Source: Candidatus Cloacimonadales bacterium (GTDB lineage: Bacteria; Cloacimonadota; Cloacimonadia; Cloacimonadales; JAIOQZ01). Taken from it: 64,000 nt of DNA. Below are positions 44,393 through 51,507 of this stretch, in pieces. Position 1 is the first letter of the stretch. Every line of letters starts with the position of its first letter. The notes under the pieces are model-generated. The model was not told the DNA's origin and made no database searches. It saw only the letters and a program-made list of their open reading frames with translations. Location: NCBI GenBank assembly GCA_963665815.1, contig OY762463.1, positions 448,001 through 512,000 of the forward strand. Reading direction: 5' to 3'. The position numbers were made by a program, and so were the translations under genes.

Positions 44393-46486
44393 ATGATGGA
44401 GAAGAGTATAGAGAAGTATGGAGAACTCACGTTTTCTCTCAAAGTAATGAAGAATAAACTCAGCAGGAATGTTTACAGGAGATTTATAGATTGTGTGGAA
44501 AACGGTCTTGAATTTGATTCCGAGCTTGCAGATGATGTTGCTCATGCGATGAAAGAATGGGCGTTGGAAAATGGAGCAACTCATTTCACGCATTGGTTTC
44601 AGCCTTATAGATCCGGTACTGCTGAGAAGCATGAAACGTTTCTGATGTATGAGGATAGTGATGTAATTCAACGATTTTCCGGTAAGTGCCTGATGAAATC
44701 CGAGCCTGATGCTTCATCTTTCCCGTCTGGTGGAATGCGTTCAACATTTGAAGCTCGTGGTTATGCAAGCTGGGATCCGTTATCTCAGGCATTTCTTCTC
44801 GAAGCAGAAAAAACAAAAACGCTTGTAATCCCTTCTGTGTTTTTCTCATACTCTGGTTTGGTATTAGACTTGAAAACTCCTATGCTTCGTTCTCAAAATG
44901 CTTTAAACAAGGAATGTATTAGACTACAGAAATTTCTGGGAAATCGGTTAGCAAAAAATCTGAAGGTCAATATCGGAATTGAACAGGAGTATTTTCTTGT
45001 TAGAAAAAGTCTGTTTGATAAACGGCCTGATCTTAAGATATGTAACAGAACACTCATGGGTTTACCACCTGTTAAAGGTCAGCTTATGGAAGATCATTAT
45101 TTCAGCTCCATCAAACCGGAAGTACTTGCTTTCATGGAGGAACTTGATCATCAGCTCTTCCGAAGGGGTATACCTGTAAAGACCAGGCATAACGAAGTTG
45201 CTCCAAATCAGTTCGAGCTGGCTCCTTTATACGAGGAATCTAATCCTGCAGTAGATCATAATCTTCAGATAATGGATTTGCTTCAAAGAGTAGCTGGAAA
45301 GCATGGATTTTCTGCGTTGCTGCATGAGAAACCTTTTGCCTCAGTAAACGGATCCGGTAAGCATGTGAACTGGTCTATCAGTGATAACACTGGAGCAAAT
45401 TATCTTGAACCATCTAAATCACCTCTTAAAAATATTATGTTTCTTCTGACAATTGCTGCAATATTGTATGGAATTAAAAAACATGGTAAACTGTTGAGAG
45501 CAGTAATTGCAGATGCAGGAAATGAGCATAGACTCGGTGGAAATGAAGCACCTCCTGAAATTATCTCTGTTTATCTTGGAGATTATCTGACTAACTTATT
45601 CACTAATCTTGAAAATTCTCATGATATTACAACAGAGAAAATGGATTTTATTAATTCAGGACTTCAAAATCTCCCTAAAATCAGCAAGGATTTCTCAGAC
45701 AGAAACAGGACGTCTCCATTTGCTTTTACCGGAAACAAGTTCGAGTTCAGAGCTGTAGGCTCAAATCAGAATCCATCTGAAGCTATAACAATTATCAATA
45801 CAATCACTGCATGTGGTTACAATAAAATATTCAGAATGCTGGAAGAAATGGAGGGAAATCCACGCGAAAATGCATTCAAAGTATTTTCACGAATATACAA
45901 TTATAGTTCTGAGGTCGTGTTTAATGGTAATTGCTATTGTGAAGAGTGGGAAGCAGAAGCCCAAAAGAGAAATCTGTCATGTATAAAGAGTACATCTGAT
46001 GCTATATTGGTGATGAATGACGAGTGTTCAGTAAAGCTATTCAGGAGCTACAAAGTTTTATCTCCGGAAGAACTTAATTCCAAGGTTCTTGCAAAACTTG
46101 ATAACTATATAAACATGAAAAAGATAGAGATTAAATGTGCCGTGAGAATGATTGAGCAGGGATATCTACCGGTATTGCTGAAAGTAATGGATGAAGCTTC
46201 AGGTTTATTGAACAGTCTGAATCAACTGAATATCAGTAATGAAGATATTATGAATAAACTCAGACATCTTTCCAGATTGTATTCATCTCTGAAAGGGAAA
46301 AGTAACAGGCTGATTGAATTACTATCGGAAATTGAGACAGTGGATAGCCAGAATTTTTCATCGGATGCAATTCATACAGCTGACGATTTACTTAAAAAAC
46401 TCAGTGAATTGATTTCTCAGTGTGAGATGCAGTTACCTGAAAGCATGTTACCTTTTCCATCTCATGAGGAACTGCTTTCAATATAA
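44393..46486 (+). CDS. glnN: Glutamine synthetase type III
   Basis: HWFQP, EPDASSFPSGG, EQEYFL, HNEVAPNQFE, NGSGKH, HRLGGNEAPP, DRNRTSPFAFTGNKFEFR. SD AAGGAG before ATG 44393/44396. Confidence 0.93.
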   Translation: MMEKSIEKYGELTFSLKVMKNKLSRNVYRRFIDCVENGLEFDSELADDVAHAMKEWALENGATHFTHWFQPYRSGTAEKHETFLMYEDSDVIQRFSGKCLMKSEPDASSFPSGGMRSTFEARGYASWDPLSQAFLLEAEKTKTLVIPSVFFSYSGLVLDLKTPMLRSQNALNKECIRLQKFLGNRLAKNLKVNIGIEQEYFLVRKSLFDKRPDLKICNRTLMGLPPVKGQLMEDHYFSSIKPEVLAFMEELDHQLFRRGIPVKTRHNEVAPNQFELAPLYEESNPAVDHNLQIMDLLQRVAGKHGFSALLHEKPFASVNGSGKHVNWSISDNTGANYLEPSKSPLKNIMFLLTIAAILYGIKKHGKLLRAVIADAGNEHRLGGNEAPPEIISVYLGDYLTNLFTNLENSHDITTEKMDFINSGLQNLPKISKDFSDRNRTSPFAFTGNKFEFRAVGSNQNPSEAITIINTITACGYNKIFRMLEEMEGNPRENAFKVFSRIYNYSSEVVFNGNCYCEEWEAEAQKRNLSCIKSTSDAILVMNDECSVKLFRSYKVLSPEELNSKVLAKLDNYINMKKIEIKCAVRMIEQGYLPVLLKVMDEASGLLNSLNQLNISNEDIMNKLRHLSRLYSSLKGKSNRLIELLSEIETVDSQNFSSDAIHTADDLLKKLSELISQCEMQLPESMLPFPSHEELLSI

Positions 46487-46546
46487 GTTTATAGATAAGA
46501 GACAACCTGTTAATGATTCAGCAGGCTGCTCATTAGGATGAGAAGA

Positions 46547-47311
46547 CTAATATCCTGTCCTGAAAAGGTTTCTTGCCCCTTTTATCCCGCATTTCTGGTA
46601 TTTATTATATACTTTTGCTGCTCTTTCGAGGATTTGCTCGTCAGTTTCTTCTATCAGCCAGCCATCTAAGGCCCACTTCAGAGTGTATGCTTCAGGAGCC
46701 ATAAGGTTTGTTGTCCATAGCAACGGGTTTACTCCGGTTTTCATAATATATTTTTTAAAATACCTTTTACTTGCACATGCAAGAATGATTGCCTCTTGTT
46801 TATCTTTTCTTCTTGAAAGTGAATCTTCGATTTCAAATTCCATCAGTCCATCATGTCCCACGTAAGAAATAAGATCGGATTTCCCACCAAATCTGAGTTT
46901 AAGAGAGTCTATCGCGATATCTACTGTAAAGTTATCACTTGCAGATAACAGAAAATCTGTGATTGTCTGTTTGATTTCTGCACCGTTATATGCATCTGCC
47001 AACAAATAAGCATTATGAACTTTATGTTTAAAAATAACTCTCTGGATAACAATGCTGTCAGGAGTATTTACCGTTTTAACAAGTTTCCACTCTTTACTGT
47101 TTTTGAAATATGTTTTTACTCCACCCGACAATCCCCAATATAGATTGTTATCAGCATCTTTACCGTTTCCCATAAATGCAGGAACTTTATGGATGCCCTG
47201 ATGAATATTATCACAAAGAGCCACAAATACATGAATAGTCTCAATTCCCTCATTTGAAAGTAATGGGATTCCAATAATTAATATGATGAAAACAATTATA
47301 TTTTTTTTCAT
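46547..47311 (-). CDS. Secreted hypothetical protein, possible caspase-hemoglobinase-fold peptidase
   Basis: Signal peptide; motifs LISYVGHDG and AIILACAS. Confidence 0.65.
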   Translation of the reverse strand: MKKNIIVFIILIIGIPLLSNEGIETIHVFVALCDNIHQGIHKVPAFMGNGKDADNNLYWGLSGGVKTYFKNSKEWKLVKTVNTPDSIVIQRVIFKHKVHNAYLLADAYNGAEIKQTITDFLLSASDNFTVDIAIDSLKLRFGGKSDLISYVGHDGLMEFEIEDSLSRRKDKQEAIILACASKRYFKKYIMKTGVNPLLWTTNLMAPEAYTLKWALDGWLIEETDEQILERAAKVYNKYQKCGIKGARNLFRTGY

Positions 47312-47450
47312 ACAAGCGACTCCTGAATATTTCAGTCAATTGATGAAAGTTTCTTGAATAAATGTCAATAAAAGAAAAGGCAAACATGCCCCCTTTTTTT
47401 AGAAATTTTGATACTGCATTAATGCTCAGTCACCATCAGTACTTATTTAT

Positions 47451-47702
47451 GTTTTCATTTCTTTTCATCGGAAAAGAAACGAAACAAAGAAAACTCCCCA
47501 CGGTCGAAAGATTATTTAAGAAACTTGTTCATCATGGGCTTTGTTAGGCTCGCTGCAAAGCTCTTTTATTACGTAAAATAGTTCAATCATGAACTTTTCG
47601 TAATACAGTAAATCATATCATTAGCTCGAACAGGTAACAAAGCCTGTTCAAGATTCACTTTATTTCTTCGAGACAATAATCTTTCTCAAATGTGGGTCTT
47701 TG
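47451..47702 (+). other. Structured non-coding element (5' hairpin plus nested long-range stems); ncRNA or non-autonomous repeat
   Basis: One 5' hairpin and seven nested helices read directly from the sequence (see findings). Several G-U pairs favour the plus strand. Confidence 0.6.
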
Positions 47703-47832
47703 CTATAAGATTATCTGAGTTTCTTCAAGACCTGTAAATTGTTAAATTTTCATTAGATACAGGTATTATGTATCTATATTACAATCAGTTGCATTATATT
47801 GGAAATGTAATTTTGGGGATATGCCTCAAATC

Positions 47833-47857
47833 AAAAGGCAGTCAGTTAGACTGCCTT
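47833..47857 (-). terminator. Intrinsic terminator of the nitroreductase gene
   Basis: Perfect 9-bp stem AAGGCAGTC/GACTGCCTT, then a short T tract on the minus strand. Confidence 0.7.
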
Positions 47858-47879
47858 GAAAACATGTATAATCTTAAAG

Positions 47880-48491
47880 TTAAACTTCCTCTACAATCTC
47901 ATCATAGGTATATCTGAAACCTCTGGGATACAACTCTTTTGATTTATCATAATATCCCATGGTAATAACCATGACAACGTGTTCATCTTCTTTCAAGTTG
48001 AACTTACTTTTTATTCCATCAAAGTCAATACCGCTCATTGGGTGAGTGTCTACACCTTTTGATTTTGCGGTGTACATGATTGACATGGCAAGTAATCCTG
48101 CGTTACTCTCTGCAAACTTAATCTTCCTTTCTTCACTTGAACCATACAAATAGTTTGCAGCGTCTTTAGCTCCCTGTACTACCTGTTCATTTGTCAGCTT
48201 CAGCATTTCTGCCCAAGTTTTGCTCTCATCTCTGAAACCTTTTCTATCTCCTGCAATTATTAAACTTACCGGAGCATCCAGAACTTTTGGTTGCTTGTTG
48301 GAAAGCTCAAACAGGTCTTTCTTTGCCTGATCTGACTTTACTGCTATAACTTTCCATGGTTGCAGATTAAATGCAGATGGAGCAAGTACGGCAGTATCAA
48401 TTATTTCTCTTAAAACATTATCAGCTATAGGTTTTGATTTATCAAAGAAGTTTACGGATCTTCTTTCATTAATAACATCTATATATTTCAT
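47880..48491 (-). CDS. Nitroreductase family protein
   Basis: RRSVNFF, APSAFNLQPW, GVDTHPMSGID. Confidence 0.93.
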   Translation of the reverse strand: MKYIDVINERRSVNFFDKSKPIADNVLREIIDTAVLAPSAFNLQPWKVIAVKSDQAKKDLFELSNKQPKVLDAPVSLIIAGDRKGFRDESKTWAEMLKLTNEQVVQGAKDAANYLYGSSEERKIKFAESNAGLLAMSIMYTAKSKGVDTHPMSGIDFDGIKSKFNLKEDEHVVMVITMGYYDKSKELYPRGFRYTYDEIVEEV

Positions 48492-48676
48492 TTTTTTTCT
48501 CCTGTTAGTTCATTCTATTAATTATTTCAATTAATACTTTTATTATAGTATAAGTAAACGGTATGAAATGCAATATCTTTTTTTTTCTATCAAAAGAGTT
48601 TTAAATAATTTGTCCATGCAGTGAATAGTATTACTTTTTTATTATAGCTCTTAAAAATATATATGATGGGGATTAC

Positions 48677-49657
48677 ATGAAAATTCTTATATTCTTTTTT
48701 ATTATGTTATTAGTCCTATTGGGGTGCAGTGATGATAATGGGGCTAATAAACTATCTTCTGTTCGTATCGGTGTGCAGAATAATACTGCTTCAGCCTTGA
48801 TTTTTATTGCTGCTCAAAGAGGTTTCTTTAAAAGCAATGGATTAAAAGCCGAAATTGTTCAATATCCTTCCGGAAAAATCGCACTTCAGAACATGTTAAA
48901 GGGAAATGTCGATATGGCTGTCTCAAGTGATATTCCTGTTACCGTGAACGCAATCAGAAATGAGAATTTCAGAATACTATCAACAATTTCCAAAACAACC
49001 CAGGGAGCCTGGATAATTGCAAGAGCTGATCGGGCCATTGATGAGCCTGCGGATTTATCAGGAAAGACAATTGGCACACAGTCAAATTCTGCAGTCCATT
49101 ACTTTCTATGGCTTTTCGCAGAGAAGTACGGTATTTTTGATGAAATCACTATTAAGTTTATACCTGCTGTTAATCTTGTAGATTCTCTTGAAACGGGTAC
49201 GATAGATGCTTTTTCTATGAGAAATCCCTTTATTAAAGATGCGGAGAATAGATTAAAGGGAAATACAATTGAATTCAAAGAGAGTGACTTATATATTCAA
49301 AATTTCCTTTTGTTAGTCAATAATGAGTTCATGTCAGACAATCAATATACATTGAATAAAGTATTGAAATCTTTGCAGGATGCCGAAAAATTGACCATTA
49401 TCAATCAGGATAATGCCTGTAAAGCTCTTTGCTCTTATTGGGAAGATAAAAGAAACGAAGAAGTTGAAGAAAGCTGGGATAAATATGATTTTGAAATTTC
49501 ATTAAGTCAGCAGCTGATAAATTTGATTGAGGATGAGTTTCAGTTTGCAGAGCATATTGGAGTACCAACCCAAATTGATAACGTGAATATATTTAATTAC
49601 ATTTATATCGAGCCTCTTCAGGATATTGCTCCGTCTAAAGTTTCAGTTTACAGGTAA
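48677..49657 (+). CDS. NMT1/THI5-like (TauA/SsuA) substrate-binding lipoprotein
   Basis: Lipobox LLGC; IFIAAQRGFFKSNGL, SGKIAL, DLSGKTIG. Lies 5 bp before the kinase. Confidence 0.85.
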   Translation: MKILIFFFIMLLVLLGCSDDNGANKLSSVRIGVQNNTASALIFIAAQRGFFKSNGLKAEIVQYPSGKIALQNMLKGNVDMAVSSDIPVTVNAIRNENFRILSTISKTTQGAWIIARADRAIDEPADLSGKTIGTQSNSAVHYFLWLFAEKYGIFDEITIKFIPAVNLVDSLETGTIDAFSMRNPFIKDAENRLKGNTIEFKESDLYIQNFLLLVNNEFMSDNQYTLNKVLKSLQDAEKLTIINQDNACKALCSYWEDKRNEEVEESWDKYDFEISLSQQLINLIEDEFQFAEHIGVPTQIDNVNIFNYIYIEPLQDIAPSKVSVYR

Positions 49658-49662
49658 AGATA

Positions 49663-51507
49663 ATGAGTATTAGAGCGAAGATATCGGTTTTTACGACAAT
49701 TTTTATAATTCTTTTTGTTTCAAGCGTCTTGCTGTTAGTGTCGCTCAACGCCAGAAACTCTGAAATATACAAACAAAGAATATATATTAATGATATTTTA
49801 TACAAAATTTTTGAGATTAATATTTTATCAAAGGATTTATTACTTAAAAATAATGAAAGGTCTATCAAACAATGGGAAGCAAGTTACAAAAATCTCCAGA
49901 AGGCAATTGAGTTAGCTCATTCAATAAGGCTGGATGACTTTTCTCATAATATATTGCATGAAAGAGTAATTGAAAAGAGTGTTGCACTTTATGAGTATTA
50001 CAGGTCATTCAGAAATAATGATTTGAGCAAAGAAATGAAGCTTAGAGTATTAAAAAATATGGATCTTACTTCCTTGGAAATGACAAGTGCCGTTCAGCAA
50101 TGCAAAGATTTGGTCATGAAGAAAGAGAAAAAGGAGCTTAAAGCTTATAATTATGGAATGCTGACCATATTTACATCTAATTTTGCCTTATTGCTCTGGT
50201 TGATAATTTTTTATCTTTTCAATATCGGTAGACCTTTAATCAGCTTGAATAAGGATATAAAAAAAATAAAAGATGGAGATCTGACTCACGTTGCTGAAGT
50301 TCATCACAAAGATGAGATAGGTGCAGTGGCTATGGCTTTCAATGAACTTAAGATACAGCTGGCTGAAGCTTATGCAGTGACTAAAAAACACAATCTTCTC
50401 TTAGAACATGAAATAGGTGACAGAATTGCAGAAATTCAAAAAGCAAGTGCTGATTTATCTACGCAGAAAGAGACATTTGAAATGCTTCTTAACGGTATAG
50501 ATGATGTAATATATGTAGCCGATCCCGAGACATATGAACTGATCTACTTTAATGAAACAGCTGAGAAAACATGGGGTGAAGGACAAATTGGGAAAAAATG
50601 TCACAAAGTTTTGCAAGACAGAGATGAACCATGTCCATTCTGTACTAACTACATTATTTTTGGAGAAAAACTTGGTACAACTCATTACTGGGAATTCAAA
50701 AATGAGGTTAATGAACACTGGTACCGCTGTGCAGATAAAGCAATAAAATGGCTTGATGGTCGCAAGGTAAGATTTGAACTGGCTTCAGATATTAATGAAT
50801 TGAAACAAGCCAGACTTGATTTGGAAGAATCTAATAAAGAGCTTGAACAGTTTGCTTATGTTGCTTCACATGATCTTCAGGAACCTTTAAGGAAGATTAA
50901 CAGTTTCTCAGAGCTTTTTGCAAGAAAATTTTCTGATTTAGTAGACGAGACAGGCGAAAGGTATCTGTTTTACATAACTGATGGTACAAAGCGAATGCAG
51001 AATCTTATTTCAGACTTACTGACTTTATCGCGGATAAATACTCAGGGGTGTGTGTTCAAGAAAGTGGATATATATAAAGTAATGACCCAAATCTCTGAAT
51101 TGTTTAGTGATAAGTTAGATAGGCTGGATGGAAGAATAATCTACAATGAACTTCCTGTGATTTTTGGAGATGAGGGACAGATAACTCAATTATTTCAAAA
51201 CCTCATTGGAAATGCAATAAAGTTCAGAAGGTCCGATGTTAAACCAAAAGTTGAAATTACATTTGAAGCCAATAATAAAGAGTGGATCTTTTATGTAAAA
51301 GATAATGGTATTGGAATTAACAGTGACTATTTTGAAAGAGTATTTGTTATTTTTCAGAGACTTCACAGTAAAGAAAAGTTTTCAGGAACCGGAATTGGTC
51401 TTGCAATTTGCAAGCAGATTGTTAACAGACATGGCGGTAAAATCAGTATTGAGTCTGAGGTAGGGAATGGCTCAACATTCAGATTCAGTATCGCAAAACC
51501 AAAATAA
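49663..51507 (+). CDS. Membrane sensor histidine kinase (TM-periplasmic-TM-HAMP-PAS-HisKA-HATPase)
   Basis: HAMP KDEIG; H-box FAYVASHDLQEPLR; QNLIGNAIKF, DNGIGI, GTGIGLAIC. Confidence 0.95.
   Translation: MSIRAKISVFTTIFIILFVSSVLLLVSLNARNSEIYKQRIYINDILYKIFEINILSKDLLLKNNERSIKQWEASYKNLQKAIELAHSIRLDDFSHNILHERVIEKSVALYEYYRSFRNNDLSKEMKLRVLKNMDLTSLEMTSAVQQCKDLVMKKEKKELKAYNYGMLTIFTSNFALLLWLIIFYLFNIGRPLISLNKDIKKIKDGDLTHVAEVHHKDEIGAVAMAFNELKIQLAEAYAVTKKHNLLLEHEIGDRIAEIQKASADLSTQKETFEMLLNGIDDVIYVADPETYELIYFNETAEKTWGEGQIGKKCHKVLQDRDEPCPFCTNYIIFGEKLGTTHYWEFKNEVNEHWYRCADKAIKWLDGRKVRFELASDINELKQARLDLEESNKELEQFAYVASHDLQEPLRKINSFSELFARKFSDLVDETGERYLFYITDGTKRMQNLISDLLTLSRINTQGCVFKKVDIYKVMTQISELFSDKLDRLDGRIIYNELPVIFGDEGQITQLFQNLIGNAIKFRRSDVKPKVEITFEANNKEWIFYVKDNGIGINSDYFERVFVIFQRLHSKEKFSGTGIGLAICKQIVNRHGGKISIESEVGNGSTFRFSIAKPK

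Follow-up and report, generated by a model that had tools for sequence, protein, structure and literature searches.

The MITE and the gap that it occupies

The window considered here is a stretch of 64,000 nucleotides from a Candidatus Cloacimonadales genome, and the region of interest lies between two genes on its minus strand, a hypothetical gene at 46547-47311 and a nitroreductase gene at 47880-48491 (assigned by Pfam). The former encodes a predicted exported protein of 254 aa that has no match in Pfam or NCBIfam. A reading of the sequence alone had described a nested, rod-like structure at 47451-47702 in this gap, and had suggested that it is either an uncharacterised ncRNA or a non-autonomous mobile element that folds as ssDNA. 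The rod is indeed part of a mobile unit, but that unit is larger than was proposed: inverted ends, a target-site duplication that agrees at 11 of 13 bases and an empty site in the congener G001, where both flanking genes are joined and the 13 bp sequence is present in a single copy, together define a 445 bp MITE that has no transposase ORF (Table 1).

Table 1. Features of the element and its insertion site, in window coordinates
Feature	Position	Strand	Basis
Non-autonomous IS4-type MITE, ~445 bp, no ORF of its own	47383-47827 (ends +/- ~2 nt)	-	ends, duplication, empty site
Left terminal inverted repeat, promoter-distal	47812-47827	-	matches left ends of autonomous elements, e.g. L241, L245
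Right terminal inverted repeat, promoter-proximal, decayed	47383-47397	-	matches G-run right end of autonomous elements
Target-site duplication, promoter side	47370-47382		equals 47828-47840 at 11/13 bases
Target-site duplication, other copy, overlapping U-tail of upstream terminator	47828-47840		sequence comparison
TTGACA box, predicted -35 of ORF 46547-47311, targeted landmark	47363-47368	-	sequence
Predicted intrinsic terminator of upstream nitroreductase gene, just outside MITE	47835-47857	-	prediction
Head: 14-bp hairpin plus mirror tract, predicted intrastrand triplex	47453-47493	-	sequence, folding
Rod of nested helices, internal loops with many tandem G.A on minus	47485-47702	-	folding, helix check
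Apex motif, 3' half (family consensus ends ...GCGAG)	47549-47554	-	conserved in relatives' alignment
Insert in place of the family's GNA mini-hairpin loop (holds hairpin 47567-47605)	47555-47623	-	alignment
Apex motif, 5' half (family consensus TGTYYGAG)	47624-47632	-	alignment

The insertion point of the MITE has the TTGACA box on one side and the nitroreductase terminator on the other. In G001, whose site is empty, TATAAC lies 17 nt past this box; the -10 is weaker in the window genome, and a promoter scan of the window does not have the TTGACA site among its predictions. The window genome has a second copy of the MITE at 2.668 Mb, where the flanking sequence is unrelated and the likeness extends to window position 47830. 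Three sequencing runs (contigs of one sample) contain only these two genomic copies. The right terminal inverted repeat is better kept in the second copy (L002) than in the window. The second copy also has two additional hairpin inserts (L002:1416-1500), one inside the linker of the head and one at the base of the rod, each with a loop of the CC-GAA-GG type and situated on opposite strands.

An IS4-type transposon family that inserts upstream of TTGAC boxes

The ends of the MITE are common to an unnamed IS4-type element found in relatives. The pattern of a -35 box together with a MITE end matched 17 of the 232 genomes of the phylum, with zero control hits, and the matched loci led to elements of 1466 bp that encode a transposase of 431 aa. 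Relatives of this transposase occur in 67 of the 232 genomes; the enzyme was not found in the window genome or in G001. It belongs to DDE_Tnp_1 (Pfam) and reaches no NCBIfam cut-off, its scores against the models for IS4, IS701, IS1380 and IS1634 being far too low. Its best match, by sequence and by fold, is the Tn5 transposase (predicted model with pLDDT 91), and the Tn5/IS50 enzyme is the closest solved structure. In an alignment of 96 sequences YREK is invariant, and D103, D191 and E326 are conserved together with Y319, R322 and K333, residues whose conservation suggests catalytic roles. The protein is encoded by a single ORF and fits both D(60-110)D(100-150)E and Y-2-R-3-E-6-K.

The IS4 family is defined by the YREK signature (De Palmenaer et al. 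2008, PMC2266710), and as described in the accessible text of that paper it is similar to our element in having a single ORF, the same DDE spacing, a complete YREK, a length of ~1.47 kb, inverted ends and a Tn5 fold. The duplications given for the family are 7-13 bp (Table 1 of PMC2266710), a range that the 10-19 bp duplications of our element overlap yet exceed, and the ends of our element fit none of the seven subgroup patterns in the accessible text beyond a leading C. The word 'promoter' is absent from the text of PMC2266710.

For the analysis of the ends, 50 loci were fetched by protein similarity, with two loci originally picked by the promoter pattern excluded, and both ends were found in 38, several of which are copies in one genome, each at its own site. 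TTGAC is situated 14-25 nt past the right end in 35 of these 38 elements and past the left end in one, and the clear duplications, many of them longer than 13 bp, end 2-4 nt before TTGAC. Insertion by this transposon family is oriented, and its targets lie immediately upstream of TTGAC boxes. Among the same-end MITEs of the window genome, TTGAC lies 15-21 nt past the right end in 13 of 14 (background 0.9%), the 14 being those elements with both ends parsed by script, the MITE described above included. The window genome also contains a second family of same-end MITEs, with about 17 near-full copies of 380-450 bp (e.g. at 2043326, 3278658 and 1381306), duplications of 13-18 bp and a triplex-type head in the mirror form; every parsed copy is directed at a TTGAC or near-TTGAC box. 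Two minimal MITEs, at 3249025-3249078 (54 bp) and 1898439 (115 bp), consist of barely two ends and still have a duplication and a downstream box.

We propose that a Tn5-like transposase, since lost to view in the window genome, moved the MITE and pasted it so that the right end faces the -35 box. While the position of the site is evident, the enzyme may have located it through the promoter or the polymerase bound there. Oriented insertion approximately 15-17 bp upstream of sigma-A -35 boxes is described for TnGBS and ISLre2 elements (p-MULT 3) and some ISKra4 elements (Guerillot et al. 2014, PMC3942029). In the accessible text of that paper the right end is likewise next to the promoter and insertion is oriented, whereas the transposases are Mutator-like rather than DDE_Tnp_1/Tn5-like, and promoter targeting by the IS4-type partner looks to have evolved independently. 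With TTGAC at a fixed distance in 35 of 38 copies, the Tn5-fold family would mean that promoter targeting arose a second time, apart from the Mutator-like families, and would offer a compact model for sigma-factor-guided integration. In the mainly open-access literature searched, we found no report of an IS4-type enzyme with oriented insertion upstream of promoters.

Other candidate partners were rejected. Both IS1595 (PF12762) and ISLre2 (PF06782) were found in 0 of 41 genomes, the latter in a search that matched no control genome either. There is no multi-copy transposase among the 3534 ORFs of the window genome, and its sole DDE_Tnp_1 match (L471) is a truncated gene without MITE-type ends, which we take from its motifs to be IS1182-like. 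The transposase of one relative (G036, L199:198-1493) has at residues 421-431 a C-terminal tail, modelled with low confidence, in which an almost invariant Q is part of a QLxI-like motif that we take to resemble a sliding-clamp binding motif.

A dispersed repeat as cargo: head, rod and apex

All eight helices listed for the rod in the sequence-only reading are present where it placed them, with a G.T pair at the end of two. Folded as RNA, 47451-47702 has a free energy of -69.5 kcal/mol on the plus strand (z -6.5 against shuffles) and of -71.8 kcal/mol on the minus strand (z -5.5), and none of 200 shuffles folds equally well as RNA on either strand; with DNA parameters, z is -5.8 (plus) and -6.4 (minus). 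The z-scores together with the homologues described below rule out a chance fold or a plain terminator. One compensatory change relative to the second copy falls within helix 47580-95. No Rfam family reaches the gathering score across window positions 45000-50000, nor at 10 related loci with the exception of one tRNA. A kink-turn reading of the G.A loops of the rod was dropped because the flanking pairs misfit what is generally known of such turns.

The hairpin noted at the 5' side of the rod is present, but it is more than a hairpin, as together with an A-rich tract it forms a mirror repeat in the layout of an intrastrand triplex. On the minus strand this head consists of a pyrimidine, a second pyrimidine and a purine tract of 8 nt each, and its pair 47457/47480, which is A.C on the plus strand, becomes a G.T wobble. 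The triplex is predicted from this three-tract layout, which is over-represented in the genome: there are 26 heads of this type in the window genome, and 1 and 0 in reversed controls. Heads come in two forms, a single C shifting in all three tracts. The short motifs noted as flanking the inner arm, here called the apex, were confirmed and placed at 47549-54 and 47624-32; shuffling the rod 5000 times produces this pattern in 52 cases, and in the 5' half all 27 aligned relatives have the same T, G, T, G and A.

Among species genomes, a scan found at least 124 stretches with a head, in Proteobacteria, Bacteroidota, Firmicutes, Fusobacteria and others, and the apex motif follows downstream in 61 of 133 head matches. 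These scans across phyla bear out the likeness to dispersed repeats of diverse bacteria that the sequence-only reading had noted. Membership of the family is defined by motifs and alignment, and the counts are not independent because related genomes are included. Head and apex are conserved in the family alignment, in contrast to the freely varying stems. A further pairing, of at least 4 bp between the hairpin loop and the bases that follow the mirror tract, would close the head as a pseudoknot; it is found in 61 of 109 distinct heads, as compared with an average of 11.7 and a maximum of 24 in 1000 rounds with shuffled partners. The pseudoknot pairing is absent from the window copy and its nearest relatives, and in the window copy an insert takes the place of the GNA loop of the family; the window copy is decayed and therefore probably an inert passenger.

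It could be argued that the rod has no separate identity or function and is simply the interior of the MITE, self-complementary by descent as ERIC, RUP and Correia elements are. The exact stems of the window copy do occur only in three MITE copies among the 232 genomes searched. However, the head and apex recur outside such MITEs in many phyla, and the same-end MITEs of relatives carry different, unrelated hairpin cargos, so that this explanation is largely refuted and we consider it very improbable. A -35 box with a MITE end precedes 11 of 38 heads within the phylum and 0 of 131 elsewhere, and a module related to the repeat, carried by the larger MITE family of the window genome, is also free-standing about 14 times. 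The repeat is separable from its MITE carrier, and we are highly confident of a two-layer identity in which a MITE is the carrier and a repeat the cargo. Same-end MITEs seem to collect palindromic repeats. Other hairpin repeats are present in L191, L201 and L209 (all from G035) and in L198, L205, L186, L193 and L210, and the cargo of one such MITE is a hairpin of the BoxC kind with a G-rich mirror repeat.

The BoxC, PIT and TM_ECO repeats are similar to our family in being dispersed intergenic hairpins with a mirror tract in a triplex layout, often in inverted pairs and with no linked transposase, insofar as they are described in the accessible text of PMC4666352 (Holder et al. 2015; Hoyne et al. 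2000 as cited there). They differ in being G/C-rich where our head is A/T-rich, and unlike them, as far as that text describes them, our repeat has a covarying pseudoknot, a long rod, a conserved apex and a MITE carrier. The function and spread of bacterial intrastrand-triplex repeats are left open in the accessible part of the same paper.

Copies of the repeat are intergenic and patchy in distribution, often situated beside other hairpin repeats, and six inverted pairs, with 370-440 bp between partners, account for 12 of the 17 heads of one Polaromonas genome; the window copy is a singlet. A plasmid search with the Polaromonas doublet returned 129 records, mostly megaplasmids, and no annotated feature underlies any of the 60 matches listed. 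One contig of a member of the Bacteroidia (G473:C2:303157-382488) contains 12 apex copies within 80 kb. REP sequences and REPINs, which are associated with RAYT, are likewise dispersed intergenic palindromes, are presumed to be ssDNA substrates and form inverted doublets, as the heads do in Polaromonas. The repeat could be a conventional repeat of the REP/REPIN type that serves as substrate for an HUH (Y1) transposase not yet linked to it, its fold having no role beyond the cleavage and pasting of single-stranded copies. The inverted pairs, the genomic distribution and the presence of Y1_Tnp genes in the window genome are all consistent with this. On the other hand, heads or apexes flank 0 of 16 Y1-transposase loci in the 5 genomes searched (one of the 16 has a head about 1.3 kb off), and among the ORF clusters of 160 repeat loci no recurring mobility gene was found. 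The repeat is also much longer than a REP sequence and has a triplex-type head. The phage sites described below bear on the same question.

Folded strand, phage apexes and possible function

The sequence-only reading had placed the rod antisense to both neighbours. For the family this is reversed, as the strand that folds is the one with the pyrimidine-pyrimidine-purine head, which at the window locus is the minus strand and is sense to both genes. In 62 rods read in the plus sense, the mismatches are A.C at 104 positions versus G.T at 65, and C.T at 197 versus A.G at 64; on the pyrimidine-pyrimidine-purine strand the A.C and C.T excess therefore becomes wobble and G.A pairs. The same strand is the better RNA folder in 60 of the 62 rods, in part from its composition. 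Taken alone, the window copy is ambiguous, its RNA z-score being better on the plus strand, which has two G.T helix ends (the second copy adds a third) as compared with one wobble on the minus strand. There is no leading/lagging bias in the window genome (7 of 15 free modules and 9 of 19 MITEs).

On the folded strand the apex of the family reads GAGC-GNA-GCGAG, with all four bases at N. C(GNA)G triloops number 87 on the folded strand of 142 elements and 18 on the other strand, with 13 (maximum 20) in shuffles, and the strand bias persists in AT-rich hosts (51 versus 12) and in GC-rich hosts (152 versus 23). They are present in 40 of 62 family apexes and absent from the window copy. Loops of the RNA type are not in excess in the same 142 elements: cUUCGg occurs 0 and 2 times, and GNRA 16 and 15 times, on the folded and the other strand respectively. 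Alone of 64 triloops, GNA gives a very stable DNA mini-hairpin whose RNA counterpart is far less stable, and such mini-hairpins occur at priming sites of phages and plasmids, according to the accessible text of Kimoto and Hirao 2026 (PMC13037366); an effect of the closing pair on mini-hairpin stability is described in the accessible part of PMC3201870.

A search of viral contigs with the 19-nt apex gave 119 hits for the four GNA-loop variants versus 48 for the 60 other variants, and 1 hit for a reversed-pattern control. The hits fall into 33 context groups, of which 15 have the rod and 18 are bare, and the rod-less sites keep the full 19-nt apex, beyond the hairpin itself. One of the two largest bare groups (42 kin loci) consists of lambdoid prophages whose O-like replication initiator genes contain the apex about halfway along (52-55%), where it is in frame and directly follows an AT-rich run (L311, L319, L338 and 39 related loci); the lambda origin lies within O. 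The other (12 kin loci) consists of inovirus-like contigs with Rep_trans or Zot genes. The apex also occurs in three small circular contigs with Rep and capsid genes (L309, L332 and L375), which were excluded from the evidence because the control rate predicts 2-4 chance hits.

In some other phage-like sequences the apex has a different setting. It is found without a rod in intergenic DNA of unrelated phage-like contigs (L346, L315, L345, L329, L330 and L373), and some such intergenic sites are upstream of terminase-like genes. In a group of P2-like prophages (L305 and kin, 19 loci) the full rod element occupies a fixed place between the small terminase and head-completion genes.

For a REP/REPIN-type substrate the phage match would be convergence on a stable hairpin. 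The conservation of the whole 19-nt apex in rod-less phage sites, rather than of the hairpin alone, argues against this, and we regard such an origin of the repeat as possible but rather unlikely.

An alternative that bears on the same data is that the repeat is a structured RNA, made by minus-strand read-through or from transcripts borne by the element, in which the 3' end is protected by a pseudoknot containing a U.A-U triple helix, and through which the repeat spreads or is kept. The covariation of the pseudoknot, the position of the head at the 3' end of the folded strand, and the better RNA folding of that strand all fit this proposal, as does a bias towards sense orientation relative to neighbouring genes (at AT-rich loci, 21 sense versus 7 antisense between tandem genes, many of these being MITE-borne kin). 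Pseudoknots whose stem has a U-rich loop crossing its major groove are well known among RNAs, and tandem G.A pairs are as compatible with RNA as with DNA. Pyrimidine-type intrastrand triplexes form in RNA too, according to the accessible text of PMC4666352. Against an RNA are the C(GNA)G loops with all four bases at N where UUCG and GNRA are not in excess, the apex within O-like phage genes and in inovirus-like contigs, and the blank Rfam result for window positions 45000-50000 and the 10 related loci; moreover, 7 of the 28 copies between tandem genes are antisense, and at the window locus a predicted terminator stands just upstream of the element. The ncRNA originally suggested is thus the less favoured option, and we would give it only a minor share of the probability. 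The repeat likely works as folded ssDNA rather than as RNA, and we prefer DNA over RNA with some confidence.

The reading that we prefer for the locus, with a probability of about 0.6, is that a decayed, triplex-headed repeat is carried as cargo in a promoter-side MITE of the IS4 type, and that the repeat is likely to be folded ssDNA that is read by an enzyme of the host or one acting in trans. The earlier suggestion of a mobile element that folds as ssDNA stands in part: the rod lies within a MITE whose empty site is present in a congener, and the loops of its repeat family are of the DNA type, but the MITE ends are of the Tn5 type, which act as double-stranded DNA, and the rod is cargo rather than the mobile unit.

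In the model that we propose, the repeat would have existed independently before its capture by the MITE. A pseudoknot containing a T.A-T triple helix would form at the head whenever the pyrimidine-pyrimidine-purine strand becomes single-stranded. The rod would then offer a mini-hairpin, with a GNA loop framed by G.A pairs, to a protein that most likely copies or primes the repeat and thereby spreads it. Both the DNA-type loops and the bare apex in phages favour a signal at the level of ssDNA, as judged from sequence. The signals that initiate synthesis on ssDNA (the G4, St-1 and alpha3 origins, RSF1010 ssiA and the N4 promoter hairpins) share the GC-GNA-GC mini-hairpin with many apexes of our family, according to the accessible text of PMC13037366, and the likeness extends to the bare apex of the family in replication genes and ssDNA-phage-like contigs. 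Unlike in those signals, the mini-hairpin here caps a dispersed chromosomal repeat, and its loop is lost in the window copy. A true priming role for the repeat is conceivable, though we would put it well short of even odds. Similarly speculative, and in our judgement improbable in its entirety, is a broader scheme in which the repeats constitute an ssDNA family that crosses phyla, with a pseudoknot-triplex cap and a 19-nt signal shared with phages that recruits a priming or copying enzyme of the host, spreading without genes of its own and, in Cloacimonadota, riding on Tn5-like transposons that target -35 boxes.

In the literature searched, neither the carrier-cargo combination, nor the A/T-type head-rod-apex family, nor the IS group was found in print, and ISfinder or subscription papers may name them. 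The known kin of the several pieces are IS4 MITEs, promoter-targeting Mutator-like elements, BoxC/TM triplex repeats and mini-hairpin priming signals. The 19-nt signal common to the repeat and to phage replication regions provides a short and direct handle on a possible ssDNA role.
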